Below are positions 23,318 to 53,300 of a stretch of 64,000 nucleotides of DNA, in pieces. Made by a program: the position numbers and the translations under genes. The DNA is from Phoronis australis. Its lineage: Eukaryota > Animalia > Phoronida. The stretch spans positions 124,001-188,000 of the forward strand of contig NMRA01000248.1 of assembly GCA_002633005.1 (NCBI GenBank), in the 5' to 3' direction. Under the pieces are notes generated by a model that was not told the DNA's origin, ran no database searches, and saw nothing but the letters and a program-made list of their open reading frames with translations. Numbering within the stretch: the first letter of the stretch is position 1; each line of letters starts with the position of its first letter.

Positions 23318-23366
23318 ATGGTACGGGCTTTTGTGCTGCTCTCGATGCTTTTTCAACCTTGTTTTG
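23318..23366 (+). CDS. Mosaic lectin exon 1, signal peptide
   Basis: ATG...TTTG|gtgagt; MVRAFVLLSMLFQPCF(A); phase 1 fits the next exon and gives the cleavage site CFA/CK. Confidence 0.7.
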
Positions 23367-26300: not shown

Positions 26301-29300
26301 AAATAAATTGAATTTATAAAGTAAGGCTTACCAACTATTATAGCTTAAAACACGTTTTTTTCACGCTAAGCTTCGACCGGGAAATTATCGTCTGCTAAAG
26401 TAGGTTACCACTGGTAACTGAATATAATTCTCAAGTCAAAGATGCTGACGACACGATACCCGCATTCAAACTAGAGATCGGTGATTTACAAGTAAGAAGA
26501 CATGAGAGAAAAATTTCATGGAATTAAGATATCATTTTTATGGAAATTATGTGTCTTATTTTCCGTAACGTATAAGCACAGTACAATGCGGTTTGTTGAA
26601 CGTGCGATTATTGCGCGTGCTCATTTAAGTATTCTATTTTCACTCTTGATGACGTCAGTCGCTGCGTGGTGTAGTGGTAAAGTCGGCGACCAGCAACATT
26701 AGGGTCCCGGGTTCGACCCCGTCCTCGGTTTCCCGCCAAATCGTTATCTCGCTAGTGAGATAACTTTATGGGTTATTACACGGTTGTATCTGCCATTTGA
26801 CGCTAATATCGTGGTATAAAACCGTGTAATAACCCATTTAGTTATCTCACTAGTGAGATAACATTTTGGCGGGAAACCGAGGCCGGTTTCGAAAAAGGGC
26901 CTCAAGAGTTTCGAGTCGCCGACTTTACCACTACACCACTCAGCGGCTGACGTCAACTTATCGTGAAAATAGAATACTTAAATGAGCACGCATGATCAGC
27001 AAAGGGCATTGTACCAACATTTATACGCTATGAAAAAAAAGACGCATAATTTCCATAAAAACGATATTTTAATTCAGTGAAATTTTTCTGTCGTGTTCTC
27101 TCACTTGTAAATCACCCATCTCCCATTTGAATGCGGGTATCGTAACGTCGGGATCCTTTGACTAGAGCATTATACTCAGTTACTAGTGGCAACCTACTTT
27201 AGCAGACGATATTATCGCGGTCGAAGCTTAGCGTGATAAAATGTGTAGTAAGCTACAATACTTTCTAAACCTTAATTTATAGATTCACTTTATTTCTATT
27301 TTGTTTAAATTTTCAATTGGTTTTGAGTAAAAACATTTTTTGACAAGAATAGCTCGGCTTTTCTTAAAAGATCATGACCTCCGACCCCGGGCCTCTGACA
27401 CAGAAAGTAGTTACAAAGCCGAGGCGAGTCGAGAAAGGTAGATCATGGCATTCTCGTTCAGTATGTGGTATAAATAGATTATTACATGTTCTCAATCGTT
27501 ATCCCCCTTATCTAGCCATTTTGTTTTCGATTTCAGATTCAAAAACCCATAGAAGCCGCATTTTTTACGTACACGGCTGAAAATCAGTACGTTTATTAGC
27601 AGACATGTACTACCAGATTTTCCATAAATTATGCACTTCCGGTCCAAGATGGTGGAAGTATCGGCCATTGAATTTAGACACCCCGATTTCAGGAGGAAAA
27701 CTTTTGTCCTGCATAGGGCGCATGGTAGAACCAATTGCATTCTAAATTTTTCACGTTTCAAGTTTTTTTAGTAGCTGCTTAACCTGAAGTTGTTTTCAGA
27801 ATGGCAGTCTGACGCATTTTCATTAATTTTCAATCATTGGGGGTTTTATTTTGAACGGGAAAACCAAATGACGTTAATTTTTGCATGCAGATTCTCTGAA
27901 GTACAGTCTTTAAATGTACTGAACATTTTTTTCTCCATTCCACTGTTCTTGTTCGCGTAAAAGTTATTTGTACATACCAATGACATCGTGAATAAAATCT
28001 ACGGTATCTAAATCAAAAGTTTGAGAAGAACTATCGGCACATTATATCTTATCCTACTTCCTGACTAGTTCTTGCATGACTCGTACAAAAATGAAGTAAG
28101 AAATGACACTGACCGGTATGCTGGCGACTACCCGGATGGTGGCATCAACCACTTAGTGTTCCCACTCGATCTTTTTGAATTCTTCACACAAAAAATAATC
28201 ACAAATGAACTACTTACCCCCATTTACTGCTCTGCCAAGTGAATTAGTTTTCATCTGCATTCGAACAATTCGGAACCACGTCAAGTTACACTCCAAAGCC
28301 TCTAGTGCGAACACCGGCCAGTATTAGACTTGGTCGCATCACCCTCATGAGAGAGAAATCACAAAAGGTATCCTTCTGCATATTGCGGCACAAAAACGCT
28401 ACCACAGTAATGGCCGTGATTTTATCTGTCTACCATCAACGGATAAACCTCTTCACGCAGAATACCGGATGCAAAATATTCTTTGTGAGAAAAAAATCAC
28501 ATCATAATCTAATAGCAAGCCACAGGTAGTTTATGGAATATGTTGCAAACAGTTTATCCCGTTCAATCCGCCATCTTCTTGTCACATCACGTGACCTGAT
28601 GAATATAGGTCCGAAAAGATTTCTGCTCCCGACCGGGACCCGAACCCAGGACCTTCTGCTAACGATGCAGACGCTCTCGCTGGCGGATTCAACGGGATAA
28701 AGTGCTTGCAACACAGGTAGTTGTAGCAAATTTATCGCTAATAGATAAGGATGTCATACGAAACCACTTTCTCAACGTTGGAGCAACTACTTGAATTCAC
28801 CTCTTTGCCTATCCTGTTCTTTTTGCCCATCTAAATCTGAAATTATTGGGGGTGTCAGAACTCTTCTTCGCAATTAGAATGTTGTAATGAATGTCCATGC
28901 ACTAAACTATAGTACGGTTACAAATCAATTTAATTTCAATGACATTAATTGACATTTTCTAATGAAAATTGTTTATTTTAGTACCACAATTTTCTTTAAT
29001 CTTATGTTATGCGTCTTACAGCTTATTTCATGTTAACACACAGTATATGCCTGAGAGTCCTCTCTGCTAACAGCTGCTTAAACATTTTGCGACAAAATCA
29101 TTTTACCGCAACAATGTAGCTACTAGCGTCAGCCAAGACTGCTTCTGCAGGCTGCACCGACAGCTTACATGTTTTTCTTGCAGCATGCAAAACTGGTTGG
29201 TATACTTGGCGCGGACAGTGTTACAAGTTCTTCACGGAAAGTGCTTCTGGAAACTCCAGCAATGCCTGGCATAACGCTAAGGACGCTTGTATGGCAGAGT

Positions 29301-32300
29301 CGGCCATGTTATCAAGTATCAATAGTGCCGAAGAAATGGATTTCGTCAAAAGCATTGCCGAGTAAGTATTTACATATGTTGATGAACTTTCTTTATTGAA
29401 ACAATTAGCTCAGTTTTTGATACGAACACACGGATCCTTACGTAGCGACGAGTGAATTTTCAATTTGACATCATTGAGCTCCAATATCAAGATTTCTGTA
29501 AATATCACAAACAAAACATTAAAAACATCATTTTACTTAATCGGGAATTGTTTAAAGCTGTTCTAAAACCGCATTTGGTCAAAGATAAAAAGTTTTGATT
29601 TACACCTCTCGCCGTCATGAAACTGGTCTCAATGCGTTCCTTACTCAATTGTTCCTTCAGACATAGAAATAACTCACTATTTCTTAAGACCATGCTCAAA
29701 CCAAGCCCCAAAATCCCCTAGTCCCGTCTTATTTGAGTAAGGAGAAAATTGGGACATTTTTTGTTTTTTTAACAGAAGGCAGTGGTTTGTACTTACTGTA
29801 AACAAACCCAATCGCACGTCACTCTACTAAATGGCACATCATCTCATGAGAGGGGCTCCATGTACATGTATATTGCCTCTTTGTTAAAGCAGTTTTGTAT
29901 TGTGATTCTTACAAAAGTGTTGTTGTTAGGTTACGTGCTGTCTAGAATGAAATATATAAATAAATAACGAGCTACATGATAGCACAGTTACAGAAAATGT
30001 CTAAAACATGCAGTGCTATTTTGAAGCACGTCTGGCAATCGGTTATGCATATTTAGTTAATTCGGCACTGTATTTTAAGTTGTGAGATCTATCTCCAAGC
30101 GCCGTCATTTTGTAAAATTACTTCCCGTCACTTAACCGCTAATATTCAACGCAAATTTGCTGGCGATCAAGTGTCGACTGAAATGTATGGCAATTTGTGG
30201 GCTTTGCAACGAACCGGGAGACAAACGGACCACCAGCACAAGTGTCGACTGTATTTTCTTGTGGGGGATGGCCCTATTGTGCTTCCTCTGAGGCTACCCC
30301 GGTGTTGCTAAGAATATAATTGTTTCCCACAGAAAACACTACCCTGCCAGCAAGTTTTACATAGGACTGTCCTACGGTGTTCATGGGCATGAATGGGCTG
30401 ACAACTCTGCGACGTTCTACACACACTTCGGCCATGGTAGGTTCACTTCAATTTATGCATCTGTATATGATGACTTGACTATATGCAATAGCAGACGAAC
30501 ACTTGGTGTTACTAGTGGATGTATAAAAATGAATAACATAAATTTTATGAGTGTCATAAAAAAGAAATTTTTTGGCTAATATAGTCACGGCTCTTTGGAA
30601 AACCTGAAAGCAAAATAGATGCAAATGAAACACACCAGGGAAGAGTTCAATAACGCTAGAACCTCGCTAAATACATGTAGCAAGCTTTCTCAAGATAACG
30701 CGAGATATTGCCGTGTATATTAAATGGGAGCACGTGATTTTGGCAAGACTTTTCTCGCCTCGAGACAGCTACTGAACTCTACCCCGGAATATGCAGGTGA
30801 GGTGGTACGGAGATCTCTTACCTGGCATTACTTAGCAATTGAAAGCAAGGTTTAGTCGACTGCTGACGATTCAATCAATTGACTTTTTTTTGCTTTTTGA
30901 CTTAAGCTTGATGACAGATATATTCTAAAAATAACTTAACTTTGATTGTTTTGTTTTCTGCTTTTGACGAAACGTTTGTGTTCTGTCTAGTCGAGCAGAT
31001 TATGGAGTCAGCGATTTTGTGTTGTAAACAGAGGTTCAAACTTGTCCTGCTTTGGTGAAACAGCCCAAGTTCTCCATTGACTTAGCTTAGCCTAAAATCA
31101 AAGGCCAAATTCCAAAAGACGGTTCGAGAAACAGGGCTTTGGTGTCGTCTATCGATCTTTAGGCAAGCGGCAGGGCACTTTAAACCTACGTAGGCACATC
31201 TCTACTCAACAAAGTCCATGAAAGAATTTTGCTGTATCGTATACTGTGCTTCGTCGCAGGACAAATGATAAGCAGAATCGATATGCTGCTGATGTTTTGC
31301 TGTTCATACCCATGCGCGTACATGTATATATCTCTTTTCGAAATGTTCTATTATTTACACCGAACAGGTTTCCTTGACCGAGAAAACTTATACATGTATA
31401 TCGTGGGGTTACCGAGACACTGAATGTTATTTCATCATTTGTTTATCAGTCGACTAAAAGGGTGGGAAGTGAAATTCCATATTAATTTTTCAAAAACCAG
31501 CAAATAAGCATGCGCGGCGAACATAACGCAACATTAACCCAGTGTTGTCTGTTAGAAAATACGTTTTAATTGAGATCGCTTACGGCTACAAAACTGGTTT
31601 TGTGAGGTAGCTTTAATCCTTACTCACATGCAGTTTAGAAGCGATATCTGAGTTCGGAAAGAACTGGCACTCCGTTATTTTGTCAGGCAGAACGAATGAA
31701 ATTTCTGGTCACAGAGTCTGGAGAAATAATGAACGGTCAGTTCCTTCGAAGATAACACCCACCTCCAAATTGACTAAGGATCAATTTCACAATGGCGAAT
31801 GCTTTAACTCATGTTTGTGATAGAAGGTATGGAACAGCTTTAAATTAATTTTGATATGGGCGTGGTGTCTTTTATGAAAAAAAACATCCGCGGGCGAGGA
31901 AAAACGCGTGGATAATCGTTTTGCTTCATATTCTGAATTGTTTGTGACATATAGGCTTTTGTGAACAGTAAAGATTGTAAAGAGAAGGCTTACGAACTAT
32001 GTAGTATTGAGGGACGGAGATAACACTTTGAATGGCTCTAGAAAATCACATACTGTACAGTCTTTTGGGAATTCAATCGTCCCCCCCTGAGAAACCGTCT
32101 AGCAGAACATAGACGTCCCAGGTTGTGTCGCATTCCCTAGATACCGACCATGTCATTTACCGGAATAAAGTGAGACTTTTGACTTCTGACTACACTTGGT
32201 TTGTGGGGTTGGAGCCAAGTCGCAATGAATGTATACGGTGTTGGTAACCTGGCCGAGTTACGAAAGCACGTGTTTTCCTGTTCCGAATGAATACCTGACT

Positions 32301-35300
32301 GAATTAGCACAGTCACACCTGATTACTTGATACGTCATGCTGCGCAAAATTTCAACAAGGCAATCACTTGAATGATAAACTTGTGATTTCCCAATTGTGG
32401 CGGTCTGGTTAGTGGTATCAATAATGGCGTCCGAAATATTGTTCGCTGGTTTTGTTTCCAAAACTTGGTTCCACTGTCCGTTTATTTTTTATGTATGCTC
32501 ACTTATATAAACACAAGAGGGATTGCAGGGTTGCGTTCATGAAGTGTTGGCTTTTAGAAATTCAGCGTGCAAAGTGGACAACGAAAATCAGATTTGTTTT
32601 TATGGCTACCACAGCGGCAGCAGCACCATCAGAATATCACTAATGCAGTAAAAGATCTGCAGACGAGCTTTTGGACATTTAAAGGGAATTGGCTTTGGTT
32701 TAAGAAGAAATAACTTTGTAATGGAACTTTTGGCGGCGTGGCCTTGCTTTTTTACACCCTTGCGTTCATATGCGCCAGGTGTATATTTGCACGTATGTAA
32801 ATTTAGAGGTGATGTAATTGGACACCCGTATGTAGTTTTACACCCAGGTGTATTTGCGTGTACATGTAAAAATACACACCGTATGCAAATATACATGCAA
32901 ACTCAGGTGGGAACGCAATCTTCTAAGCGGGGTTTCGAATTGTGCATTCATTTCAGCTGGGCTCTAAACTGATAAGTGGATTTTCTTATTCATTAGCGGT
33001 ATATTTGCAAAATGATTGCACAACTTTCAAACCGCCCTTGGTCTTAGCAGATACATTAATTACTGAAATGTGTTTTATCACCAGTCCTACAACCGTTCTT
33101 AACAAACACACTTGCAATTGCGAGATAATTCCAAAAGTAATCCCCGGGGATCGATGCCAGGGCCTAAGAGCTCCCCACTGAGATTCAAAGCAATTTTATT
33201 GTTCTAGAACAATATTCTCTTTTCTAGCAAATGCTGCTTGTGTCGACTCCGCTGCAAAATGTATGGAGTACTGAGCGCAAAAAATGTTGCTTTTCTCTTT
33301 CACCATACAAACGCGATGTAAATTTACATCTACAAAAGGGTATAGATTTGCGTTTGGTGTATATTTACATACTAGTGTAAAAGCGCAGCATATAAACGGG
33401 GTTTTAGTCACCCCTGGACCGCTCCAAGAAATGCCGAAGATCACTTGAACTGGTCAGATTTTATAATCAACATGTCTTGAGGTTCGTCGGTGACCGAAGC
33501 CTTGTCTACACTCATTGATTTGACGATAGCACACGACACAAAATATCGGAACGTGTAGACAGACCTTTAGTTGAACATATACGTAAGATGTCGGACAATG
33601 ATTGGGGTCATTTAAGCACAAGTCGAGTAAAACCTTAAATTTAGAGTGTCAAATTTCTGCTTTTTTCAGGTTACGGTGTGACGAAGAAGATTGTTTGTTT
33701 CCCTAACCAACTGTCATTAACCTGCCCACTTGGTAAAGTTCTCCGTATACACAGAGCAAATTTTGGGCGGACGTCAAGTAACGTATCAGGCTGCGAAACT
33801 GAGGTAATGTCATCGTTTTCCCCATTAGGATTACTACGCACATCTTTGCTAAACATGCACGAACATTAAAGGATTTGATACATTTGTTTTTTAAAATAAA
33901 ACCGATTCCAGTTTCGTGTTTAATACAAACTGTAGTATTTTATCCCATTATCACACACAACTGTGCATGCATTGTTGTTTGAAATAATGACTTATTTTTT
34001 CAACAGAAACACATACTTGACTGCATCTCGCCGTCCAGTTTTACGATAATTCACAGCTCCTGCCATAATAAGACATCTTGCACCGTTAATCAAAGCACTT
34101 CTGTGTTTGGTGACCCCTGCCCAAGCGAAAAGAAGTACATTGAAGTAGACTACGATTGCGTAACAGGTATGATGCCGACAGTTGATGATGCAAGTGCTAT
34201 CTTGCCACTGCGACTGCGCATAATGGTTGACTGTCGGTTTCATCGGTTCAACCAGCTAAGACGTCCGATTGTTCTGTACGCTGGAAGCTGTCATCGATAA
34301 GCAACCAGAAATGTCTTGGCCGGTCGACACTGCAGAACCATGGGAGTCAATTAAGTGCAGCTTATGCATTAACCATAGCAGAAACATTTTCACCTATGAT
34401 TTGCGTCAAGCCGTTTTGTAAGAAAATCGCAAAAAATTATCAAATTACCACTTACTTTGAAAAATGTCATATCTGCTAACGCAACTTAAACTGTGGGTAT
34501 CGTTGGTGTAGCTGGCCGTAGGAAGCAGGGGGAGGGTGGGAGGCAAGTGCCCCCCACTAATTTTCGAGCTTCAGGGTTAAACCATGGTGACAACCGCCAT
34601 AGGCGTGGAGCCGGGGGCTGTCGAGAAAAGAAAGACAGTGAAAGTTGGGGTAGGGAGAAAATTCAAGAGACCATTTGTCCACTAGCAGTGCTTGGTTAAT
34701 AATAATATTATTTAAAAAAGGAGGCCGAAGTGATATAAAGAACTATAGATCCATGAGCTTATTAGCCCATACATACAAACTCTTCACAAGGCTATTACAA
34801 AATAGAATGGAGAAACAACTGGATGAAAATCAACCCCGAGAACAAACAGGGTTTAGAAAGAGCTACTCAACAACAGACCATCTGCAAGCCCTTGGACAAA
34901 CAATTGAAAAATGTAACGAATTTAACCTGCCACTTTGTGTTGGTTTCATAGACTATGAAAAGGCTTTTGATTCAATTGAACACTTTGCCAACATTGAAGC
35001 CCTAAAAACATCAACATAAATGAAACATATGTAAAACTGCTTGAAAATATATATACAGATGCCACCGCCAAAATACACATCGACAACCACGTCTCTGAAA
35101 GATTCAACATAGAGAGAGGGGTTAGACAGGGTGACCCAATTTCACCAAAACTGTTTACACTGACAATGGAAGAAATCTTCAAATCTTCAGACCTTCCAAG
35201 GGGAGTAAACATAGACGGAGAACGCCTAACAGACCTAAGATTTACAGATGATGTTGCTTTGTGCACAGAAGACATAATACAATTTGAAACAAATTTAAAT

Positions 35301-38300
35301 ATACTGAATGAAGAAAGCAACAATGTGGGATTAAATATACAAAAGGACAAGACAAAGTACATGACAAATTTTGAAACAAATGAACAAGTAATGGTGGAGA
35401 ACAAGATCATTGAAAGAGTCACACAATATAAATACCTGGGACAACATATGACCAATGAAATACAACTCCGAATAACAGCTGAATGGAGTTTATTTGGAAA
35501 AAATAGAGAAATATTCCAAGATAAGAACATACCCATATCCCTGAAAAGAAAAGTATATGACCAGAGCATCATCCCCACAATCACCTATGGATACCAAACA
35601 TGGACCTTAACAAAACAGACAATTGCCAAGCTAAGAACAACACAGAGAGCAATGGAGAGAAAAATGCTTGGAATAAAGTTACTAAACAAGATTCCACACA
35701 CAGAGATAAGGGAACAAACAGGAGTCGTGGACATAATCAAGATAATTTTGAATTTGAAATGGAGGTGGGGCGGACAGGTGGCCAGAGCACAGGACAACAG
35801 ATGGACAAAAAGATGCACCGAGTGGCAAACCAGATATGGAAAGAGATCAAGAGGACAGCCCCAAGCCAGATGGAGAGATGACATCGAGAAGACGAGAGGT
35901 ACAACGTGGATGAGAGCGGCAAGAGACAGAAAAATTGGAAGGCATTGTCAGAGGGCTACATCCTGCAGTGGATGGTCAATGCCTAGAGTCAGAGTCAGTG
36001 AGAGTAAGTTCCTGGTTTAACCTTTGAGGTTCCAGGCCAGGGAATTGTTAGGGGACCCCAGTTTCTTGCAGCATTGATCATCTAAGGGTACTTGAAGACG
36101 CACACTTAATCATTCATACAGGTATTTCGATAAAGGTCGAGAAAATATGTAAAGCACAACTTTTGCAGGGCATATTAATTCATGAGAGTTTTGAATTCAG
36201 GAAGACAGTTTTAGGGAGTGCAAAACTATATTTTTCTCGTCAAGTCTTTTTTCGTGTTCTTTCTCAAAATTGTATATCACGTGGTAAAAAGTGAGAACCT
36301 GACATATAGCAACGATTGCTTCTCATTTCCTGTTTTTTATTATAGATCCTCTAATATTTAAGAGCCCAGTCCTTGTAGGGGGCCCATTGATGGCATCCAT
36401 GCGGCCACCCTTTTCGTGCCTTTTATTGATAACTTTTTGGAGGCAGCTCACGGACAAAGGGCCCAGTGATTGCATTGACTGCCTCTATTTTCTGTCTTTG
36501 CGAAATCGAAAAACTTTTTATGTTAATGAAAGTCACTTCTTAGAGGGACACACGATGATGGAATTAACTAACACTCTACCATTTTTAAATGATATTTAGC
36601 CTTTCATATCAAGGGTACCCCTTTCAAACGAGGTCCTCACTCGGAGGGGCATCCGGGGTACTTGCTGATTCGTCCCTCTATCAGCCCGACTCTGCCAAAT
36701 ACTCACGAGGGGAAGAAGATAGGATTCCAAATTCACCTAAAAAGTAAATTCGTGCAAAGCACAGCAGTGTCAAGACATTCAGCCGCAAGAACAAAAAGGT
36801 TGCAGTGAAAAATGCAATTGGATAAACCGTCATTGAAAGGATGAGAGTTTGAAGAACTTGAAGAGTCCTATTTGTGAAATACACAAAAGAAATAGTCCCG
36901 ATAAAATGTCGCATACTCACACATGTCGGACAAACTGTCGGGGGTAGGATTTTTGACGACCATAAACAGAGTACATTTCAAATGGATGGTACTCAAAGAA
37001 TTATACAAGAATTGGCTCTCATAAGCAAAGAGTTCAGCGAACTTTGAAGTAAGTTCGATTTTAGCCCATAAACCGTAATAGCAACCTGCACAATGAGCCA
37101 AATTACTCTTCAAAACGAGTAAATTCGGAAACATTTTGGCCCCATACCTGGCGGGATACCCTCTCCCACGTTCCCCAGATAGCCCGTCCAGAATCTGCAA
37201 GCAACCTTCGGGAATTGCTAATGCTATTCTGATTTGATAGAGAACGAATTCGTTGGTTTCAAATTTATGCGTTTACGTATCTACGAAAATCTTTTTGGAC
37301 AATTAGAAGGTAATCGTATAAGAATTCATGTTTCAGTGAATGTACTTGTAGGCTACACTAGACAATCCTTGCCTATCTGGAATAATTCTCAAAGGTATTG
37401 ATGAAGTTTGAACAGTTCTACAGTGTCTCCCAACAAAGTACTCGCAATTCAAATGGCAACAAATGGTTCTTGAACACGACTGGTGATTTTAATTTAAAAC
37501 AAGATATCAAAAAGGGCTGAAGTCTTTCAATCACATTAAACGCATTGCCAATTATACGTACCTTCGGAAAATTAGGTAGCTTTGCACTTGGCAGCAGGCA
37601 AGGGCGTAGAATCGGATACACGGGAACGAAATTGATCTGTTGACGTTGTACAGGACATAGTGCGAGTACAATTTTGGGACACCCCCTGAACAATTTTCCC
37701 CAGCCACTAAAATTAGCGCTACCCGTGCTTTAACAAAGGATCTTTAAACAATTCCACAAGCAGCGTATCAGGGACACCGGAACGTCACACTTACAAATTT
37801 TATGCCTTTTAACCATGACTGTTTTCCGCAAACTGGACCACAAGGTTTGCCTCCTACCCAAGCAAAGCGTGGGAGGTCGGTTTAAGATTGGCAATATTTC
37901 AGATAATGGAGGGAAGAAGAATGGTAACGGTTTTCTAATCGATTTTAACTTATGTGCTCATGACACTGACGAACGTTTACAGTTTGGTTTGCACATCTCC
38001 ATGTAGATTTCAAGCTTGGAAGCCATTTCACATAGCCCACCCACAAGAAATGTAATCTGTATCTTTAGTATCATCAGACTTGTGTTCTGTAAGTGCGATT
38101 CCCACTAGGGTGGTCGTCATGAACGACAATGTGGAGTGTCGTGAGACCATGGTTTTCTAAAACTTTTCACGGTCACGTTTGGTCGGTCTATCTCCTCTTT
38201 CTTGAACGGGTGGAAATGACTGCGCTTGGATGCAGATGCACTTGTGCTGACTATAGGTTGCACGTGATATAATTTTACTGATTTCAGATGTCAACTCATG

Positions 38301-41300
38301 CACCGTCTTAGATCCTTCGGTTGGGTTTTCGTGGAAAGATTCATCGTGTAGCCATAGAGATATCGGATACCTGTGCAAGGAAGGTAAATTCAGTACATTT
38401 GAAAAGCTTAGGCGAGGTTTGTGACTAAAACCTGTTGATTTTTATCTTCTATTTCTATGTAATGGTAGATTTGTTTATAGTAAGCAGCCATTCCCACAGC
38501 AAACTGAGTCCCAATCTGGTGGCACAGAGATCAGTAAATTGGCGTATTCATTGTTTCTTTTGTTTTTCCTTGTTATAATAAAGACAATGACAAGCATTTA
38601 TCGATAACCGGCTGAAAAATTAAGGTATTCATGGGACATGTATTGTTACAAGCATATTCAATAAAGACGCAACGAAAGAAAACAATGGTAGCGTTCCATA
38701 TGTAAAAACCATGCGACGCGCTTACGCCCGTCGCACACATGTCGCTAGTTAAACAATACCTTGCGAGATCCATACGACGTCATTTGGCATGGGAACACGC
38801 ATTTTAGAAGTAAGCGACAATAATTAGTTAACCAAATATTATCCGTTAACAATAAGTTGAGCTTCTAAAAACTCTTTAGAGTTAAGGTAATGTATCTCCC
38901 TAGAAATATATCCAAGTTTGGCTAACTTTGGAACATCATATTTCAAAGATGGCTGAACTTATGAAACTTTTAGATACAGTGCATTATGAACTGTCATTAA
39001 AATGCTGTTAGAAACTGTTTTTAAAATGTTCCACGTTTGCGTGAAAAATATGACATTGATGTTTGTTCATGAAAAATGTCTTGAGTTCCACGAAACCAAA
39101 ACGAAATGACATTGTAGAAAACTGTAACACCTTTATTTAAATTTCATCTTGAACGCGTTACGAAAACCCATCACCACCAATTGCCTTACGAACGCGGTGC
39201 GAACCAAGAGTGGCCTACTCAACATGTTCGCGGATTATTTAGGGGACAGGGGACAACTAGTGTAACCCTCAAATTCCTGCGGTGATCGTAAGCATTTTTC
39301 TCATTACTCTGGGACCTCATTCTTAGGAACTCCCGAGCGGCATTCGTGGGACCTCAGAGGTTTCATACGAATCTCCGCGTTTGTAAGAAACATTTGCGAC
39401 CGTCAGTTATCAATATATAAATCATTTCTGTTCCAGCTCGTCAAACATACGCTCCGCTGGACTGCATTAGTGTTCGTAACACTTCCGAAGTCGCTAAATG
39501 TCCCTCTGGTAAGCTTGCACTCGATCATAGAACTCTGGCCTTGGAAAGCCAAGCTTGACCTCGCGCTTCTGCGGTTGCGCCGCGCATGCGTGGCATCTGT
39601 TTGCATTGCTGTGTTCGTTCTCGCTATGGAATTTTATATCACCAAAATTTTTCACAACTCCGTTTTTACCCCAAATTGCATACTAAGAGTCATATCATAA
39701 GGAAGCCCTTCATCAGTTCATTATGGTATATTTTACCAATATTATTCATTTCGCATACCTGACAGGTTTAAAACATTTTTCAATTCTAAAAACCAAGAGT
39801 GTTACCAAATGCAAAAAATAGCTGGATTAGATAGTATAATAAAAAGGAAATGGTCTAGAAAGGTCATGTAAATGACTAATTTAACCACCAGGGAAATGAT
39901 TTCAATGATTTTAAAAAGTTTCTACCCTATCAAGATAAAGAAACTAGAATATGGATCCCCCGGAGTCGTTGTGAAGAACTGTCATGCATTCATCAGAAAT
40001 TAAACATGTTATAAATTAATCAGACCTTTATCTTTGGTGCCGTTTGATACAGTTGTTTCAGGATGCTGTGACATTTACACAAAATGTGATAAACCAATTA
40101 CTACAACTACCTGTCCGAAATTTGCGGATAAAAGATTTCTGATGGATAAAAGCGAACAAACATCTAATTTGGTGTTTTGGGATGCACTTCGTTACCTAGT
40201 TTGCAATGTAACACTTCCCATAGTAGTTTATAAATAGACTGAAATCAGAAAGTAAAAACTAGTGATCCTGATACAGGCAGTCATGTTTTATACTAAACAA
40301 GAGACACTGACTGGAACCAGTGAACGAACTTCAGGAAATAAATGTGTTGGGCCGCGAGGCCAGTTAGCTTGAAAAGTTACTAGTCCTGCTGCCACGTTGC
40401 TGGTCCTGCTTTTTGCATTCAAAATGCATTTTTCTTAAAACTTGTTTTGTACGTCATCAGCTGCAACCCTCCAAGAGCAGAATTTACATGTATATCAATT
40501 ATAATCAATAGAAAATGCAGAAATGAGAACTGCAGATAACTTAATTATCCCTTCCCAGAAAGGGCTTTTTGAAAAACTTTTCTTTCCGTAATATTTATTT
40601 TAAAGCTGAACCAATTTGCTCTGGAAAATTCCAGAAAAACAAGCTTTCTTGGTCTTTCTCGATGTACATGTAGATGTAGGATATGGGTGAGTAGGTGTGC
40701 ATTTTCATGAGAACTAGCTGAATCATAGTGCAATCTATTTAAAAATTGAGTCTTCTAACAAAAGGTCATGGCCCAAAGGATAAATGCAATACTGATATTT
40801 GTCAAATTAACAAATCTTCCCTAAATTTTTTGCTCTTCTACATGTTCCGCTGTGTCTCTGCCACTGCTATAGACCAAAACCAATCCACACGACGGTTTCA
40901 CTCGTAGTTATTGGGACGTGTAACTTCCATGTCCCAGGGTTCATCCTTCATCCTTTATTGAGGTTGCACTGTCCCACATCAACCTCATATGTACAGTTTA
41001 GTGCTGACTAAATTGCCCGAAATACATTTTATACGTGGAAATGCTACTCTTACGTGTTCCACTGAGGCTCCAGGAGAGCCGTGATACCAACAAATTCCAC
41101 GTTCAGAGAGATAAAACAAACTTGCAGCTTATTTAAGAAACTGTATTTTTTAGAATTCCCGCAAGGTGTAGCATGTCGATGCTCCTGTCCAATCAGCCGC
41201 TGGAGAAACTATCGCCGCACGTGCGACTGTTCACTCTGTAGTTCAAATGACGTCAGTGAGGCCCGCTGTTGTAAACCTCAATCCGGATATTCACCTGGTC

Positions 41301-44300
41301 CCGACTACAGACCCTCTGTTGAATGTCTGGAGATTAAAAACCATCTTCCCCATGCAACTTGTCCCACAGGTAGGTACTTCATCGATCATGTGATGCGTGA
41401 AATAATGTGTGTGGGTGTGTGAACGTGTGCGTGCATGCGTGTGGGTGCCTATACTACACACTCTTATTATCTTACACACTGGGGTTACACTCTTTTTGGT
41501 AACAACTTAATTTCCAACATTTCAGCTAGAGCGTTAATGAGAAACGGGATTCTTATACTTTGAACTGATTTACTTTTTTGAAAACCGTCAAACTTGAATT
41601 TTAGTTAAAACTTTTTCGAAGTGATTTGCAACTCAGGTAAATGCCAATCTTCGTTCGATCTTTCTACGAAGTGATAACTATTTGTCCATAACTGCATGTA
41701 CCCTAGTAAATTCTCAGTATTCTTTATTACAACCCGAGTATAACATCATGCAATAACAGTACAGATAACTAGTGCATAAAACGAATCATTCTATCTCAGC
41801 TTATAGCTTGCAAATTATTTCAGAGAAAAATATAATACTGAGAATAATGCACAGAAAACAGCGAAAACAAAACGACATCGTACGGAATTAAAGGACTAAT
41901 GTTTAAAAAATCCCAGAAAACTCAGCTTAGCGTAGAAAATAAACCAGTTGTTACAATGACACCCCGGTGGGAAACTGGGGTAGAATTTAGCAACGCTAGG
42001 ACCTCTATAAAATCTAGCCAAAATCCCGGGTTCTCATTTGCAATACAAGGCAATATCTTACGTACATGTAATCTCTTGAAGTCGTCCTTTTTAGCGAGGT
42101 CTTAGCGTTGCCCATCTCTACCTAGGCTGGAAGCTGGTCGCATAGAGATCGGTAGATTGGGTACATCCATTGTTCACTTGTTATGATAAAGATAAAGAAA
42201 AAAAACATTTATCGGTAACCCGCTGATATTCGACCATGGCGAGATATCCATACTACTTGTACTATTGTATCCAGCAAACACGTAAGAAAGGAAAACATTG
42301 GTAGCGTCCCATAGGTAGTAACCAAGAGCCGCGCTTACACCCGTCGCATTCATGACGCAATGCTTTGCGAGCTCTATACGACGTCACTTGGATTTAAAAA
42401 TGCGATCACTAAAGTTTTGCAGTATTAAAACAATACAGCTGTAACCTAAATTGTGGCAACCATATAATAGCTTGTGAGTTTTTTCAGTCCTATTTCTTCA
42501 AAACATGTGATTGCTGTTGAACATTATGGTAATTTATGTTTTGAAAACAAGAGGAAAGGGCGTGGAGTGATTTGGTTGGCGCAAAAACCTAAATTACGTT
42601 TTCATAAGACTTTCAAGTCAGAATACTGTATTTAAAACTATGTATTTATCCCCGCTACATTGAGATCTGTGTTAAAACAGTTGTGATTTGAAATTTTGCT
42701 ATTGGATGTAGATTTAGGGAGGTTTTAAAAGAAAGATTATGTAAAGTATGTAACCAAAATACTAATAAAGGAGAAATTTATTTTAATTTCGTTTTCACCT
42801 GATGTAAAATTTTATAAACGGGGTTTCGAAATGAATGATCAGTTCTAGACTTGTTTCTAAATTACCTGGAAGCTAGCTCTTGCGAGGTTTTCGATTAGGA
42901 CACAAGATTGTCGAAGGAGTTGCCTATATTGTGTGTAATAAGCGTTTGTTTTTTTAATGGTATTGACCAAGAGGCAGGGGATGTGTCGCATATTAAGTAT
43001 TTTTGTTTTGTATTGTATTCTGCGATGCATCTATTCATTATAATAAATAATGAATATACCAATGTTATCAAACTGAGACCAGATCATTGGATTGGAGGTT
43101 GCGAAAGAGCCGTTCACAAACATCATTATAGACGGGCATGTGAGCAAACAGCGAGCTATTAATTTCATGAACACAATGTATTCTTGACCAATAAAGTCAC
43201 AGTTATTTAGTCTAAAATGTGCGCATGCAACCTTCCACTTAACCGGCGACGTCATCATCGAGATAAGCTCGGCAATAGTTATTCCATCTAATTCATGGTT
43301 GAATTTGGTATGTGAACATAATTTCAGTGTCATACGATTGTGGCGGCCATTTTGATAGTGAACCACGGAAAATTAAATTCGGTTAATTTAGTTAAAGTGG
43401 GGTCGTGTATAACCTGTGTTTTACTCCAATGTTTGCTTTAATAATCGGTTTGAGCAAAATTGAACAGAAGGAAGTAAATAACCCAGACATGACTTTTTGT
43501 GTTTTAGATTTTCCAACAGCCACGGCTTGTTCTTGTAGCAATTGTGGTGCAGCTTTTGAAATCACGACTGACAACAGGTGTAACTGTACTGTTGTCGCTA
43601 CTGACTGGACTTCGGCTCAATGCTGTAGGATCGTGTATACACCTAGAGCGACAGGTTAGTCACTACGGTCTACGTTTCACTTCAAGATTTTGTGAGCCGA
43701 TGGGAATGCAGTGACAAGGTTAAGGTAAACCAAGTAGTTGTGGCAGAGTACTGCTATATTTGAAGTAGATGTATTGTTTTCGTTTAAAGGCCACTCGTAG
43801 ATGAATATTTATGCTAGTAACGAGTCTGGCAATATCTCCCAACGATAGGTTTCGCCATGGCAATGGTCGCAGGTAGGCTAGCTCTTATCAATGTTGAGAT
43901 GTGCACGCCATGGAGCATTTGTTCGGATTGTTCACAAAAGTCACGCATCAATATTCTTGCATAGAACCTTAACTCCGTCACTCTTAAACTTGATGCCAGG
44001 GAATCAAAACCAACTATTGCGTGCGGAGTAGGCTCACCTACAAAATGGTGCAATATATTAACTTGACATTAATCTTCCCTCTTGAGACATCATGGTCTTC
44101 GACAACATTATGCAATGTACAGACGTACATGTATGGACACTGTGAAACTTCACATTACTGTCCGCCCACGATGTAAAAGTTAGGAATACAGTCAAAGGAT
44201 TGTTGCAGTGGCTTTCGGGTCCAAGCAGGTTTTTATACTTCTGAAACCCCGGTGGAAGCTTAATTCAGCAACAATACTGCGTGTTAGTCAGTATCTGTAC

Positions 44301-47300
44301 CACCACTCCAATTATGATATGATTCGTTTTCAAAATCGAAATGCTTTTCGTGGAATGTAGTTATTAATCTTCACCCTGTGAAGGTCTTTCCACGGTAACT
44401 ATGGCAGCACTTAATTCACTTCGCCGATTGCATTCTGCGGGATCCACCGGCTAAGGCAACTGATTGGTTTTTAGACGGACGACGACTTCAGGCTAACAAA
44501 CCAATCAGATCTCTTAGTGGGTGACCCTGCGGAACAGGGAAAATCCATCAAGGGCAGCTTGTCCCACGCCAGATTCTCTACCATCATAATATACAATGTA
44601 GGGCCATTACAGGGAAAAGTTCAATGTCAAAAGTAATAAAAAATCGAAGCCCTTGGACAAGTATCAATTTGGGTCTGTGTCAGTCACGTTATGTATTCGG
44701 TGGTGAGATGAAAGTCGATTGTGTTATTTACGTATTATTTTTGCAGGTGAGTTTCTAATTGAAAGATATTTACAAATAGACGGTATAGTTGTCGACGGAC
44801 ATGATGACTGGACGCCATCCAGCGTGACATCCGAAAAAGAGTGTTTGCAGGCTTGTGAAGACCAGGTAATTAAGTCATCTTTTTAACACAAAATACTACT
44901 CCATTTCCTTGTATTACGTAACCACCTACTTAATGGAATAGGGGCAGTATTTTAAAGTGATTTTACTTCAGTTCCCGAGCACAGAGTTTACTGTGGCACG
45001 TATGGCCGAGTTCGACAATGTAAAATGCCGACAATATTGAACTATATTGTCGCTCAGGCGACATTATCTGTCCATGCCTAGAATTGACCTATCGCCAGGA
45101 TTTTGAGTGACGGCGTAAATGACCATTTAGAACGCAGCATTATTGACACACTTTCGTTTACAAGCCGCCATTTTACCCGATAAAGAACACGTTGCCGGGT
45201 AAAACTTATTGTTTGTTACTCGACATTACGCAAGGGGGCGGAGATTGGGATAGGTCAATTGTACTGTGACACTTGGCTTTCCTCATTTCCAACTGCTGGT
45301 TTATGGTCCATTATGTTGCGCACCCAGCATAATAAACGAAACAGAACACTGGCTGTGCAATACTTTCCACTTAAAATTATAGTATAAAAGATAAATTTCC
45401 TGTCCGACTTTCAAATTTCAAGAACCTTCCTACAATTACCTTCGCGAACTGTTCAAAATAGGCTATTTATAAATTTCAAATTGAAAACTTGAAAATACCA
45501 TTTTTGCTCCAGTGTTTACAGCAATGTTTATGATGGACAATTTGGCGCCTGATTACGCAAATTAATTTGTACAAAACGATCACATCAACTGACGCTGGAT
45601 GGTTTTTAAGGCTATCAAACTGGTTTAGTTGCTCAAACTCGACCGGTGAGAATGTCACCGTTGAATTCCTTTCATGTTGAATGCAGCAGTATCAAAGCAG
45701 TATACACCGGAACATATTGTCGACCCCTAACTGTGTTAAAAAGTAGTGTATTTTAATACAGACTTAAAATCAGATTAAAATCAGTTTTGGCAGATAAGCG
45801 GGTGCAGAGTGAGAACGTATCCAAAGTGAGAGAAAACCTCAGGAAATTGTACGAAACACCAAAACAAGATTGTGGGAACATGACTGGGGGAAAGATCCGG
45901 GAATTAAGTGGTTGGTTTTCATGACAACATGGCCTGATGCGTAAATTTTGCAACCAAGAACATTTAGAATATTAAGAACGTGTGTGACTCCCTCCAAATT
46001 TAGGTAGCTCCTTCCCCCGCCACTCGAACTTCGGATTGGCATTCCGACGACGTGTCACATACTACCGAGAGAGTATCTTGTCAAAGTTTGGATTTGCGCA
46101 TGCCTCCACTTAGTCCTACACGCCCTTTCACGGACAACACTTGTATAAGTAAACACATGGGGATTTCCTAAATATATGAATAAAGGTCGCGCAATTATTC
46201 TCTCTGACTCGTTTTTTGTGCATTGAGTTTTAGTAATTAGTTCTAAAAACAAGAGTTCCATATTTGAAAAGTGCGCAAACTTTGACAAAATCAAAAAAAT
46301 GCCCGTTAGGATGCAGATTTTCAGTTGCTTTTGCCATTAAAATAGCTTGACTAAAATAGTATGATCATATTTTCCGTACAGGTTGGATGCAACTCAGTGG
46401 AGTTCCTGTCGTCGGAGTTTAGTGCATGTAAGCTGAGTCGGTCCTCAATAAAACATGTCGGTATTTCTGGGTTACTGCAGCAGCAGCCGGGATATACGTA
46501 CTACGAAAGGCTGGACGGGGAAGGTAAAGTACCCAATGATCACATTGAGTGTAGGGCCCTGTATATGGCAGGGGCGGATCCAGGATTTTGAGTTGGGGGG
46601 CAAGGTAGAGTATTAGCCAGGATTTTGCTCGTCAGACATTCCCAGCTCCGAACTGCCAAATGGAATTTTAGGGGGGACATGGCCCCCTTGGCCTCCCTCT
46701 AAATCCGTCAGTGTATGGCTATCGAACATATTTTAGCTGTTTAATGTACCTGGGTCATTATCAAATTTTGGGGTCTGAAAATCAACATTATAATCGAGTG
46801 TCAAAATGGCGCGAATGCTTAAATGTTGCTGGTCAGTTTTGAGACGACATCAAGTCGGTGTGGTCGGCTTCCGAATAAACGACTAAGTTTTGAACACGCC
46901 AAAGCAAAAATTTCATAGATGGTAGAAAATGTCGAGCTGAAATGTCAAGACAATTGCAGTCTCCAACGACAAAGCCCCGAGTGGGGAGGCACAACGGATA
47001 TACGGTCCCTGTTTATTGCAAAAAGCCATCACTCATTCAACACTCATTTCAATTTTGGGTTCACGCCCCTGTTCGCTGAGAAATAGCATACATTGAACCC
47101 CTTCCCCCGGAAGAAAACCGTTATCTATTTTTGCCTCCTCCCTTGTGTTGAATTCTTCTGGCAACTCGAGTAGCGATCTCGAGGTACAGAGGGAAAAATG
47201 ATGGCACCATCATTTAATGCTCATTATAAATTTGTTAATACTTTAAGAACTATATTACCTCAAAATTTAATCTCAACCTGGTCTTGGGCGGGTAAGTGAT

Positions 47301-50300
47301 CACCTCCTGTTAAGCGATTCTGAGGTACAAGTGATTCTAAATTTAGGTTTGACGTCATTTTGATATCAATAGTAAGACGGTACAATGTGTGCGAGGGAGT
47401 ATTTGTCCTAAGGAAAATAGCTTAATGCGAGTAATTATACAAATGTTCCGTCGGCGATGATGTATTCTCGATCAAAAATGAACTATTCTCCGCCACACAA
47501 GAAAAAAAGTAGCTACCATCAGGAGATCGGTAAGAGAACAGGGAGAGGAAATTAGGCCATCGTCGAGCACTTGACGCCGCGGCGGCTCAATTGTCGGAGC
47601 TCGAGGATTTTTCCCTAGGAGCTGTAACAGTTGTTTTGATGGGCTTGTTGTGATGTCAAGTGACTCTACAGAAAATTCCAAGAGCGTTTTCTAAGCGGCG
47701 AACTTGGCACAGGAATCGACCATCCGAAACCGCTTCACCGGAGCCTGCATAGACTTTGCACATACATGTACCTAGAAACTAGACGGCTCCGAACTTTCGT
47801 GGCTCACGATTAGTCATAAAATGAGTTCAAGTAACTAAGCAACGCAGGATGGGCCTCCCAACCAGGGCACAGGTTGGTCCTTTCACATGGGCGCACCCAA
47901 TGGGCAAAACGGTCCGTCTCAGCGAAACAAAAAGTCCACGGGAATTCTGCGCGGATGCACAATTCGTAAGCTTGAACATAGTGGCTCCGTTTTTTTTTAG
48001 TCCTCGTTGATTTTTGTCAGTAAAAGGTCCGCATATCGAAAAATTCTAGCGCCCCCACCCCTACATTTTCCTACATTTTAGGCTAGGTGCGCCCATGTTT
48101 CATCGCTATCGTCTTTCACTTTTAATTCCACATTGATGTCAGCTGAGTACCGGCAACACCTTTATATAGCCTCATCAGTACTCGACATGTATAAGCTGTG
48201 CTACTGTTACTTCGAATGGCTGACGCAAACCCAATCCTACCTACCCTACACCTGTAGGGTTCTTGTAATAATTCATTGCGTACAAAATCAGAATAAATTG
48301 GCAGGAGCACCTCAGGTGGACAAAATGTGTTGAATACACCGCCGTGTTATGTAATCTCTATAGCATATTTAAAGGGGAAAGAATCCTCACGTGCCAGGCT
48401 AGCCAACCCACGTGGCTTGCCACATAAGGTAGTCAATACAGTCTGGACTTCTATTTCCGGCTTGTACGAAGCCGACTGCGAGCTGGAGTCCAGGACGAGG
48501 CTATATTCTGCACTGCTTAAACCATTCGTTTTCAATGCCGATTTTCGTTTTTGAGTAGTATTCTTAAATACTGTGATACCTAACATAAACACCAAAGAAT
48601 ATGCTACGTGACACACCCATGTATGAAATGTGTCCACCTCAATTTCTCGGAAATACATGTAAGTAATAAAAACAGACAGTATTTTTTATTGAATTGTCTA
48701 ACATGCTTAAGCTGCTTAAGGAGGTCGTTATAAGACTCCGAATAGTTAACCTACATGTAGTGCTTATGACTACACAATTGTTATGAAAAACAATGAATTG
48801 TGTTTTGCACATTCCCCAAAGCATTTTTACATACAGACTGAAGTGAGTAAATGTAGAACAAATAATCCAGTTGGTTTCCACAAAAGGAAGTGAATACATT
48901 ACACTCATGGTTCACTGTATTAGTTCATTTAATGTCCCCACTTGTTAACGCCCACCAAATATGACTTTGAACAACCACCATTTCTATTCCAGGAGATACG
49001 CGAAACTACTTCCAGAAGTTTGATGGTGTATATGTTGCTGGTGTGAACACAATTGGCAGCATTGCTCAACTGACTTTGAGTTCGTGTATGACCCTATGTT
49101 TGGAGGATAGTTCGTGTAAATCAGCAGATTTCGATGTTTCAGGCAAAATTTGCTACAAGCGTGAAGGAAATAGTTTTGACGGAAATCTTGTTGTATCCAG
49201 ATATTTCTACCATTTCGATATCATAACAAACACACCAGGTGAGAGGTACTATGGCTTTTGTCAAAACGTTTAAAAGCCTTGAAGCAACAATTCACTCTGT
49301 TAAACAATCCAAAAATGAAAATCGAATATGGTCTTTTTCTTTGTCTTAAAATCGGTCACATAATATTCCCTTACTGTGACTGGATTACTTTTCAATTTCT
49401 CGGGCAATGCTTACATGTACATGTACTGTACCATTTTCAAGTTCCCCAATTAAGTCTGAAGCGTTTTCTTGAGACGATGACGTTTCGATGTTCTTGTTGG
49501 TAGAAGAGGTAAAATTCTACCACGGTAATGAGTATTATGACGTGATATAATGAGAGTAAAGGGCTCGTTTTGATTTTAGCTTTATCCAGCTGAACAGGAC
49601 GAAATGCAGCTTTATCTCTATAATCAGCAATTGGTTAAACAATTCTAGAATTGCATCTTTTCTTCTGGTGAGTAGAATGGGATAATTGTCAAGCAATTTG
49701 TCATGTCAAATGTTTTGACATTTAAAACTGTTCACTTCCAGATCCCCTGCTTGCTTGTGACAACGTAAAGAGTGATTTATCCGATGGCAACCAGTTTTCA
49801 TGCGGAGCAATAGGTAGTACAGCTAGATTTTCACTTTCAGTTATGGAGGGTGAGCTGGACGCGGAAGGGTGAGGGTATGGGTAGGCAAGGTGTCAAGAAC
49901 TGGCATAATAGCAAGCAACAAATAAAAATTTCTTTTATATTTCCAAAAACAGTCGAATTTTATAGTAGGTGTAATTTCTTTCCATAAAATAATATAACAT
50001 AACTTTAACAGCCAAAGATGTCTTATTGAAAAATTCCAGGCCATACTATTCCCGGCATCTAGATAGCCTGGCTTCAGGGCGGTGAGTCTATTATACAGAA
50101 TGGCCAGTTCTAAATTTTCTGTTTTGTTAACTAATTTTGCCGATAAGTTGTTGGTTGTCAGGAACCGTACCTCAAGAGTATGGCTTTATGAACACAATAG
50201 AAAATGTCATTGAAGCAATGGAATTAGGCTTGATCTGATAACTACAACACTGGATCAAAAGTCAATCGAGCAGACAGAAATTTTTTCAGTGCAAACTCTC

Positions 50301-53300
50301 GGGATCAGGAGCTCTAATAATAGAATACGTTGGTTACGTGCGGGAGTTGGCATTCGAGGGCTGGAGTTCTATGGTTTACACCGAGTGGTCTTAAAGTGCT
50401 TAAATTCCACAATTTCGTATCAAAACATTAAAAAACAAAAAAAAAAAACAACCCCAGCAGTCTACCAGCTACCAACACCCGCGAACGTTATCCGACGATA
50501 TGTTGATTAGCTGGTCTCTAGTTACGAGCATTTATTGGTCGAAACGTACTACGTAAAATCGGGACAACCAATCACACCACTAGTCATCTTCCATTCTGTT
50601 TAGCAAAAAATCGTCGGATATTACTTCTAGATTTTCATGGTTTGTGGTATAAAATGGAAGGGCAAGGTGTTCGTTTTTGGTGGTTATGACAACTAAGTAT
50701 TTGGCCATGCTGTGGATCTTTTCACTTTCCCACGGGACATCGGAAAAGCTAGGATTTGGCGCGAGTTTGTACAAGGAACTCGCGTGCTGATGGAGATGAC
50801 ACACTGGATCTGGGTACGTTCACGTTTCGTGAACACAAAGTCACAGAGGCTGTGCGGCGACTCGGACTCGGTGCACTTGTTCTCAACGGTCGTATAAGCT
50901 ACATGCGGACTTACAACTCTCTCAGGATTAAAAATACGTTTTGTCTTCGTTATTGCTACACGTCGTTGATTCACTATTATGGCGATCAACTGAATGCCTG
51001 GCGGGAGATTTGAGTAACAGCCCTGCTACTTTTGACCTGGGATAAGTAGTAAACATATTTATGATCGACATATGTCCCGAATAATAGATAAATGATACGT
51101 GCGTCGCAAACTCGTTACCAGAGACGAAAAGGAGACCGAGTTAGGCGATATAAGGTTATTTATTATGACTAATACAATTACAATATAATGAATACCGGTA
51201 ACATACAAATGGTAATCTCTGGTAAGATGGGCAATAAAAAGCGCCACAAGAGATGTTGTAAAAACGCATTCCCCTCCTTTGAAAGTGGTTTTGCTAAGTC
51301 TTTTTCCCGTCACATGGTACATATTTCGTATCTGAAGTTCCCAGAGAATGAAGATGGGGTATTTTGCTTGACGTATCTGAAATATTGTAAAAACGGCCCA
51401 TTTTTTGTGAATAAGGTTTGAGGTATCCTAGTGCTATACGAAAAGTACCACGAACAGTCCTCACGCGGTACAAAGATGTCATTTCTTCTATATTTTATTT
51501 CTTGTAAGGCTTCAAAGGACGAAAGCCCGATGAAGCCGTATAAAACCAAAATTAGAACCTGTTATTACGGATTAATGATCTGTTATTACAAATTGGTAAA
51601 ATGTAATTTGGGATTAACACTCTTACTTAAAACCCGTGCCACACCGTGGTGGATAAGGCCTCTGTGACCGAACGCCATCGAATCCTATTCTTCTGCATCT
51701 GTCTTATTTGCTGCTTGTTGTATCCGGTTTCACGAAGTTCGGCTTCCATTGCCCTCCTCCACGTTAAGACTGGTCTTCCCTGGTCGACAACTTCCTTGCG
51801 GGTTCCAGGACAGGGCTTGTTTCGTGATGCTTTCGTCAGGTTTTCTGAGGGTGTGTCCAACCCACCTCCATTTTCGCCGCCAAATCTCTTCATTTGGGAT
51901 TCTATCCGACCATTCAATCTGTAGGATTTGTCACAGACATCTATTTACAAAGACCTGGACTCTATTAACCAATGTTTTTTTGCAAGTCTCCTCGTCTCTG
52001 AACCGTAAAGAAAAACAGACGTCACATTAGAGTTGAAGATTCTTAAATTTGACTAGAGTGAGTAGGTCTTTGAGCGCCATACTGGCTTTAGCATATAGCG
52101 TGTGTCTGACGAGATTTCTTGATGCGTGCTTTAATGTCCTCTTCCGTTCCCCCACTTGTGCTAACGACACTCCCCAGATAAGTAAACTCTGAGACATCTT
52201 CAGGATAACATTATTTACTTGTCTGCTATGTATACGCATCGTCTTAATCTTCTCGGTGTTGATGGACAGACCTACTCGTTTAGGAGTCTCTGACAGTGCG
52301 GCTGTCCTTGTACACAAATCTTGGAAGCCGTGTGACAGAAGACATAAGTCATCTGCATGCTCTAGGTTATCTAATCGTTTCGTAAATGTCCATTGGATTC
52401 CTGCTGGTTGACCCGAAAAAACAACTTTGGTAATCCAGTCCAGTACTACTAGGAACAGTAAAGGAGAGAGAAGGCAACCATGTCGGACTCCTGAATTAAC
52501 AGGGAACGGTTGAGTCAGCTGTCCTTCATGCAACACCTGACATGTAAAGTCTTCGTAAAGTTTTGTAACTAGTATGACAATTTTCACAGGTTTACCATAG
52601 TGCCTCAGAATCTTCCAGGTAGCGTTTCGACCAATACTATCAAAGGCCTTACGAAAGTCTATAAAATTCATGTAGAGGGAGGAATTGCACTCATTGATTG
52701 TTCACGAGTCTCGCTTGATGATTCCATTGTGTACAAAAACGGCAAATTGAAAATGAAGCAATGAAATTAGGCTTGATTTGATAGCTACAGCACTCGATGA
52801 AAACTCAGTCCAGCTGATAATCGGAAATTCACAGTGCAAACTGTCGCAAGATATTTCGGGGTCGCCTGCTCAATTATTTATGGTTCATGTGTGGGAGTTG
52901 TCAATAATTTGTTGTCGAACTCACATATGTAGGGTTTGTGTTCATTTTCTAGGACATTAGAAAGAAAACGACACACTTACGTTGTTGAGTAGTTTAATAC
53001 TTGCTACTCTCAATATGTCGGTATAATACATGTAGTAACCGGTTTATTTATAATTGTCAAAAAATAAAATAAGCCACTTTAATTCTTCAGCCACCTGGAT
53101 GGAACATTTTACTTACGTCCAAGATGCAGCAATAAGCGGATACAATAATGAGAGGTTGGGCGTCGCTAAAAACGAATGCCTCAAACGGTGTCACGATTCG
53201 GTCAAATGCAAAACTGTAGATTTCTTCGAAAAAACAGGTAAGGTTGTTTTCTTAAGTGTCTCTACGATCTGTGTTAACAGCGCTGTTTAATCACACTCAA

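Follow-up and report, generated by a model that had tools for sequence, protein, structure and literature searches.

Do resistins, which have been reported only from coelacanth to mammals (PMC4467842), have relatives among invertebrates, and would any such relatives share their descent or only their fold? This question is raised by a 64,000-nucleotide stretch of the genome of the phoronid Phoronis australis (GenBank assembly GCA_002633005.1, contig NMRA01000248.1, positions 124,001 to 188,000 of the forward strand; hereinafter the window, with positions counted from its first letter). A gene on the plus strand of the window apparently encodes two tandem domains that match the Cys-rich head of resistin and the RELM proteins (also FIZZ; Retn, Retnla/b/g; Pfam family PF06954) and are flanked by lectin-type and PAN domains. 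Two further sources likewise treat resistin as a late arrival, placing it among the domains that are new at the highest nodes, from mammals upward (PMC1654190), or describing it as expanded in land vertebrates (PMC12804077). As far as titles and the starts of abstracts show, a resistin domain has not been reported from an invertebrate, in a survey of literature other than subscription papers and bioRxiv supplements; two main texts on resistin that were checked for the word 'invertebrate' do not contain it. Some invertebrate proteins in public databases may already be labelled 'resistin-like'. New here are the near-complete ten-Cys signature, the intron shared with vertebrate resistin, and the setting among lectin and PAN domains.

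The two resistin exons that can be joined with the help of RNA reads are located at 41154-41369 and 43508-43654 on the plus strand and have AG/GT ends and phase-1 boundaries. The first of these encodes the C-terminal half of repeat 1 with eight Cys, a 14-residue linker, and the N-terminal half of repeat 2 (C-x11-C-P-x); the second encodes the C-terminal half of repeat 2, with seven Cys and without Cys8, followed by a short linker. The splice between 41369 and 43508 proposed in the first-pass annotation is a GT..AG intron and is confirmed by four reads with four starts in RNA run X1 (none in X2, X3, and X4), the first mates of all these reads lying on the minus strand, as predicted for plus-strand RNA. 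The RNA runs carry the same species label; the reads examined make up about 18-19% of each raw run, joints were counted at 90% and 96% likeness with a threshold of three reads, and the comparison extended up to 53499. Within the repeat-2 exon, all four X1 reads differ from the window in three bases, at 43524, 43526, and 43547, two of which change a Cys-adjacent residue; this suggests an allele or a close paralogue.

Spliced in this way, repeat 2 shows exactly the spacing that had been given for it, 11,9,1,2,11,1,11,0, with nine Cys, which correspond to nine of the ten resistin cysteines, and it carries the DW-x-x-A-x-CC motif. When the exons were scanned singly, as a profile check, 43510-43653 matched PF06954 with 30.1 bits (E-value (E) 7e-7), above the Pfam cut-off of 25; the stop-to-stop frame of this exon scores 34.5 bits, with intron-derived residues included. 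With E up to 10 allowed, Resistin is the sole Pfam family detected on the two resistin exons. Compared with the PDB sequences, the same exon yielded three matches at E up to 10, and all three, 1rh7, 1rfx, and 1rgx, are RELM-beta or resistin (E 0.002-0.005). Repeat 1, completed with the predicted exon 39437-39508 discussed below, contains all ten head Cys in order, with the spacing 11,9,1,1,11,1,2,9,0, compared to 11,8,1,3,10,1,1,9,0 in the vertebrate signature, where the C-terminal spacing comes from the mouse resistin PDB alignment and the C-11-C-8-C part from a reading by eye of the coding sequence of coelacanth. In the PDB, exon 41156-41368 also matched the GLP-1 receptor, at E 0.13 or worse, which was dismissed as chance.

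Several shuffling controls bear on the significance of these patterns. A relaxed ten-Cys signature, which had been loosened to fit these two repeats, occurs twice in the gene model; it turned up in none of 100,000 shuffled versions of the model and in two of 200,000 when only the region of the two repeats was shuffled. A DNA motif of the resistin type, drawn up with the repeat-2 exon in view, has a single match in the window and none in 100 shuffles. The two repeats are identical in 18 of 59 positions (about 31%), a score that none of 5000 shuffles reached. No third resistin repeat was found in the window.

Repeat 1, originally described as a diverged copy, is not a partial one: its N-terminal half (C-x11-C-P-x) is predicted at 39437-39508 on the plus strand, upstream of the region first delineated. 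From 38382 to 41153, the splice filter leaves this 72-nucleotide exon as the sole candidate in phase 1-1. It is also the best non-self match of the N-terminal half of repeat 2 among 2797 six-frame open reading frame pieces, if a weak one (E 0.43). The C-x11-C-P-x motif combined with a phase-1 donor occurs at two places on the plus strand, namely, in the exons ending at 39508 and 41369, and at one place on the minus strand. The N-terminal half of repeat 1 alone gave no PF06954 match; a PDB match of this 23-residue exon to SMA2266 (E 0.49) was dismissed as chance.

The strongest argument on descent comes from the introns. Both repeats are cut by a phase-1 intron after Cys2-Pro-x, matching the boundary between vertebrate coding exons 2 and 3. 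Vertebrate resistin introns are in phase 1 and their positions are conserved (Hu 2015, S2 Fig); in the duplicated exon 2 of the Chinese alligator, the 69-nucleotide tandem unit, read by eye, ends in Cys-Pro-Ser plus one base (Hu 2015, S1 Fig), and the exact vertebrate boundary is taken from this one sequence together with the statement on conserved positions. The predicted exon 39437-39508 is a counterpart of vertebrate coding exon 2. The same intron place and the same phase argue for common descent with resistin itself, beyond a shared fold. The proposed resistin/RELM homology is thus supported by the Pfam score of 30.1 bits, all three PDB matches, and the shared intron, and we consider the two repeats very probably homologous to resistin proper. 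The ancestral head would have consisted of two exons, with Cys-x11-Cys-Pro-x, a phase-1 intron, and an eight-Cys half, and would have been shuffled as a phase 1-1 module. Its later tandem duplication, with the breakpoints within exons, would explain why the middle exon joins the end of repeat 1 to the beginning of repeat 2.

The similarity to the vertebrate proteins and its limits can be specified. Resistin and RELM share with the phoronid repeats the head of about 58 residues with its C-x11-C start, C-x-C pairs, and terminal CC, as well as the phase-1 intron after Cys2-Pro-x, and repeat 2 also shares DW-x-x-A-x-CC. However, resistin and RELM have one head in a precursor of about 110 residues, whereas the protein in the window has two tandem heads in more than 700 residues, lacks the N-terminal helical coiled-coil tail and the tail Cys, and differs in several spacings and in the loss of Cys8 from repeat 2. 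Given the absence of the tail and of the stand-alone layout, this protein falls outside the Retn/RELM hormone family.

The C-terminal Cys/His-rich domain of PCSK9 also has tandem resistin-type modules within one multidomain chain; it consists of three six-Cys modules that form a pseudo-trimer and, as Hampton is said to have noted in 2007, is structurally homologous to resistin. Unlike PCSK9, the gene in the window encodes two modules, of ten and nine Cys, that match the Resistin profile, and no protease domain is found in the window. Conceivably, the repeats could belong to a wider resistin/PCSK9-type fold and could have gained their Cys in parallel, in which case they would be silent on the origin of resistin itself. 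The fold is shared with PCSK9 (PMC4474570), and several of the Cys spacings differ from those of the vertebrate signature. Nevertheless, we regard this scenario as highly improbable: the Resistin profile matches, whereas the Pfam families of the PCSK9 C-terminal domain, searched at E up to 10, match neither of the two exons, and the ten Cys follow the resistin order with the terminal CC, with the intron at the same position and in the same phase in the two repeats.

Protein searches for relatives of the repeats returned little. Exon 41156-41368 produced one candidate among longer proteins, which did not score, and exon 43510-43653 produced none; neither a two-piece alignment, run against proteins 20-119 residues long, nor a three-piece profile, run at E up to 0.001 against 1.84 billion representatives, yielded any, and a protein atlas gave no usable match for either resistin exon. 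These searches also missed the vertebrate resistins, the queries being short and split, so the blanks show low sensitivity rather than absence. In metagenomes, a motif scan gave 44 loci; these are attributed to chance, given that none of the 44 has the upstream resistin pattern and most are GC-rich and off-frame. The published distribution, restricted to lobe-finned fish and tetrapods, and the failure of the low-sensitivity protein searches to recover an invertebrate relative would fit a module that came sideways from a vertebrate, or a contig that is not of invertebrate origin, with no deep ancestry in either case. We consider such an origin about as improbable as parallel gain of Cys: the repeats are only about 31% identical and, therefore, their duplication is old, RNA runs with the same species label contain three spliced joints of the gene, and the fish searches behind the published distribution may, as Hu 2015 cautions, lack sensitivity. 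Common descent with resistin remains the preferred explanation.

What kind of protein carries these heads? The gene model includes 14 exons, from 29184 to 61978, all 14 with AG/GT ends, which together provide 705 codons without a stop and encode a C-type lectin domain with a nested SUEL domain, two resistin heads, and four or more PAN domains. Expression is low in three raw-read runs. The C-type lectin domain starts in exon 29184-29361 (Pfam Lectin_C, 21.7 bits against a cut-off of 22.6), which is joined to 30333 in four X2 reads, and continues to its long loop in exon 30333-30436, an open frame with an RNA-confirmed acceptor and no Pfam match on its own. The two halves of SUEL are encoded by exons 33670-33803 (Pfam SUEL, 17.3 bits; PDB 5h4s, E 1e-6) and 34007-34166 (46.9 bits; PDB 5h4s and 2zx0), and the last three Cys of the lectin domain by exon 38288-38383, which has no Pfam match; its five PDB matches are all C-type lectin domains, albeit weak ones (E 0.09-5.8). 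All these exons are on the plus strand.

The SUEL domain lies within the long loop of the C-type lectin domain (29184-38383, plus strand), not after it, given that the joint 34166>38288 connects the SUEL terminus with the exon for the final three Cys of the C-type lectin domain. This exit joint was found in four reads (two starts) of run X3 at 90% likeness and was not listed at 96%; the entry joint, from 30436 to 33670, is predicted. The model SUEL contains eight Cys and matches PDB 5h4s with E 8e-31, as in the rhamnose-binding SUEL lectins (SUL-I, 5h4s; CSL3, 2zx0; the lectin domain of latrophilin), which have the same eight-Cys domain; here, by contrast, the domain sits inside a lectin loop and has Phe after the first Cys, where the aligned 5h4s and 2zx0 repeats have Glu. 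The host domain keeps the six-Cys long-form frame of C-type lectin domains. The motifs EPN or QPD in the long loop together with WND mark the Ca2+-dependent C-type lectins; here, there is neither EPN nor QPD, the loop site being taken by the SUEL exons, and W-K-D is found in place of WND. The insertion point is, we presume, the very place where the Ca2+/sugar motif of a C-type lectin would lie.

Downstream of the resistin heads, the PAN exons, all on the plus strand and all predicted, have Pfam PAN_1 scores of 16-45 bits, three of them above the cut-off. PAN domain 1 is split between exons 44747-44865 (16.2 bits) and 46382-46523, the latter being phase-compatible and aligning with the other PAN exons, with no Pfam match alone; PAN domain 2 occupies exon 48993-49238 (32.5 bits); PAN domain 3 begins in exon 53091-53237 (23.8 bits) and likely ends in exon 60278-60388, the least certain exon of the model, chosen for the best donor among the phase 1-1 candidates and without a Pfam match; and PAN domain 4 is encoded by exon 61733-61978 (44.9 bits), which has a phase-1 donor and no stop. 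The gene likely continues past this exon, beyond the window. At the other end, a candidate first exon at 23318-23366 (plus strand), with a predicted signal peptide and a phase-1 donor, is in frame with 29184; it is one of five hydrophobic-ATG-exon candidates and lies outside the RNA-compared stretches. The earlier interpretation of the resistin fold as a shuffled module next to lectin domains agrees with this model, in which the homologous heads are used as modules between lectin-type and PAN domains.

As to function, the ten Cys of the vertebrate head form five disulfides, and trimers are built through the tail (PMC13647132). Even in isolation, the head of mouse RELM-beta attaches to anionic membranes, makes liposomes permeable, and forms multimers on these (same source, section 2.3), which indicates that a tail-less head is a workable module. 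The two phoronid heads differ in charge: repeat 1 is basic (net +3, isoelectric point (pI) 8.4), with a loop rich in Arg, Trp, and Tyr, and repeat 2 is acidic (net -3, pI 4.9) and has the only odd Cys count among the domains of the model; the loss of Cys8 would, presumably, leave its Cys5 unpaired. The SUEL domain in the Ca2+/sugar loop of the C-type lectin would serve to recognise glycans, repeat 1 would hold on to anionic lipid of microbes or a polyanion in the manner of the isolated RELM-beta head, repeat 2 would promote the association of chains, possibly in groups of three or by a disulfide, providing avidity for the nested lectin, and the PAN array would serve as a stalk or tether. By analogy with the neighbouring domains and the biochemistry of the RELM-beta head, a role in recognition of microbes or glycans appears about as probable as its opposite.

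Structure modelling was applied to single exons and to the halves of repeat 2. AlphaFold models of single exons were of low confidence (predicted local distance difference test score (pLDDT) 51.6 and 52.4); with these models, Foldseek returned no matches, and VIA-align gave a best Z of 2.1 for one and nothing for the other, a result that says little about the fold. When the halves of repeat 2 were co-folded, three copies each, the score was 0.42, compared to 0.03 for the best of three controls; the runs agreed in at least 86% of contacts, with a partner pLDDT of 58-61. In a calibration unlike this job, 51 of 78 solved pairs passed the mark used, as did 2 of 108 mismatched ones; passes at 0.60 or under included 5 of the 78 solved complexes and all 4 mismatches that passed. 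The co-folding signal gives weak support and may reflect memory of the solved resistin trimer. In the structural comparison that had been suggested for this locus, with the six-stranded, disulfide-rich beta-sandwich head of resistin as the reference, single exons matched no fold and the joined halves of repeat 2 gave a weakly supportive answer.

The heads could also be true resistin homologues that act only as structural spacers or oligomerisation units in an extracellular-matrix, shell, mucus, or gamete-surface protein, with no antimicrobial role. PAN arrays and C-type lectin domains without the Ca2+ site are common in matrix and adhesion proteins, and the acidic repeat 2 with its unpaired Cys and the low expression in three raw-read runs fit such a purpose. 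Against this reading, repeat 1 is basic and has an aromatic/Arg loop, SUEL is closest to rhamnose-binding lectins, and the vertebrate head alone is membrane-active (PMC13647132). We view a purely structural protein as rather unlikely, although much less so than parallel gain of Cys or sideways transfer.

A number of observations weigh against the combination of resistin descent and a binding role that we favour. The C-terminal half of repeat 1 alone scores only 13.7-19.9 bits with PF06954, below the cut-off of 25, and resistin is found in none of the 15 rows of PDB matches of exon 41156-41368; repeat 2 has nine of the ten head Cys, the Cys8 position being occupied by another residue. Neither RNA joint to the predicted exon 39437-39508 is among those listed, and of the 13 model introns, three are among the listed RNA joints, each in one run with four reads, the other ten joints being predicted. 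No orthologue was recovered in the protein searches. With respect to function, Glu after the first SUEL Cys is a sugar contact in rhamnose lectins, and with Phe in its place, the ligand of this SUEL domain may not be rhamnose. The model lacks the coiled-coil tail, the driver of the vertebrate trimers, and each chain carries only two heads; the acidic repeat 2, moreover, does not resemble a membrane-active peptide. With all this taken into account, we still find it reasonably probable that this spliced gene, weakly expressed, encodes a mosaic protein that is predicted to be secreted or to sit at the surface, with the resistin descent and the binding roles outlined above included.

Other parts of the window contain several unrelated or decayed elements. 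In the predicted first intron, a PAN-like stretch at about 24082-24352 (plus strand; Pfam, 14.7 bits) contains in-frame stops and attracted no reads at 96% likeness; it is likely a dead exon. Two further introns harbour broken remnants of reverse transcriptases of the long interspersed nuclear element type, one at 34654-36020 on the plus strand (Pfam RVT_1, 44 and 56 bits, in two frames) and one at 51627-52701 on the minus strand, judged by translation. Upstream, the end of another gene at about 5795-6860 (plus strand) encodes a RING/PHD-like Cys cluster, with weak Pfam matches, and an acidic, Tyr-rich tail; it may resemble DC-STAMP-domain proteins. An assembly gap of 575 N at about 11460-12035 precedes a small two-exon gene at about 12106-12432 (plus strand), likely for a secreted six-Cys peptide of the knottin type (weak Pfam matches below the cut-off: Toxin_35, E 0.002; Conotoxin, E 0.013).

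This gene bears on whether the original job of resistin was metabolic signalling or defence. Resistin heads likely arose long before the vertebrates and likely served first in the recognition of microbes. If true, the existence of a tail-less homologue with the same intron, embedded among lectin domains, would move the origin of resistin to the early bilaterians and would favour recognition or defence as the older role. More tentatively, and with somewhat less than even confidence, we propose that the head, internal intron included, is an ancient module of innate recognition in animals, older than the split between protostomes and deuterostomes, that vertebrate resistin and RELM are its stripped-down, stand-alone versions, and that the mosaic protein is an undescribed pattern-recognition scaffold, in which cationic heads would bind or breach microbial membranes while SUEL, placed in the sugar site of a C-type lectin, would provide glycan specificity. 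With one basic and one acidic copy, this gene would be a natural head-only case for the action of the resistin head without the coiled coil.

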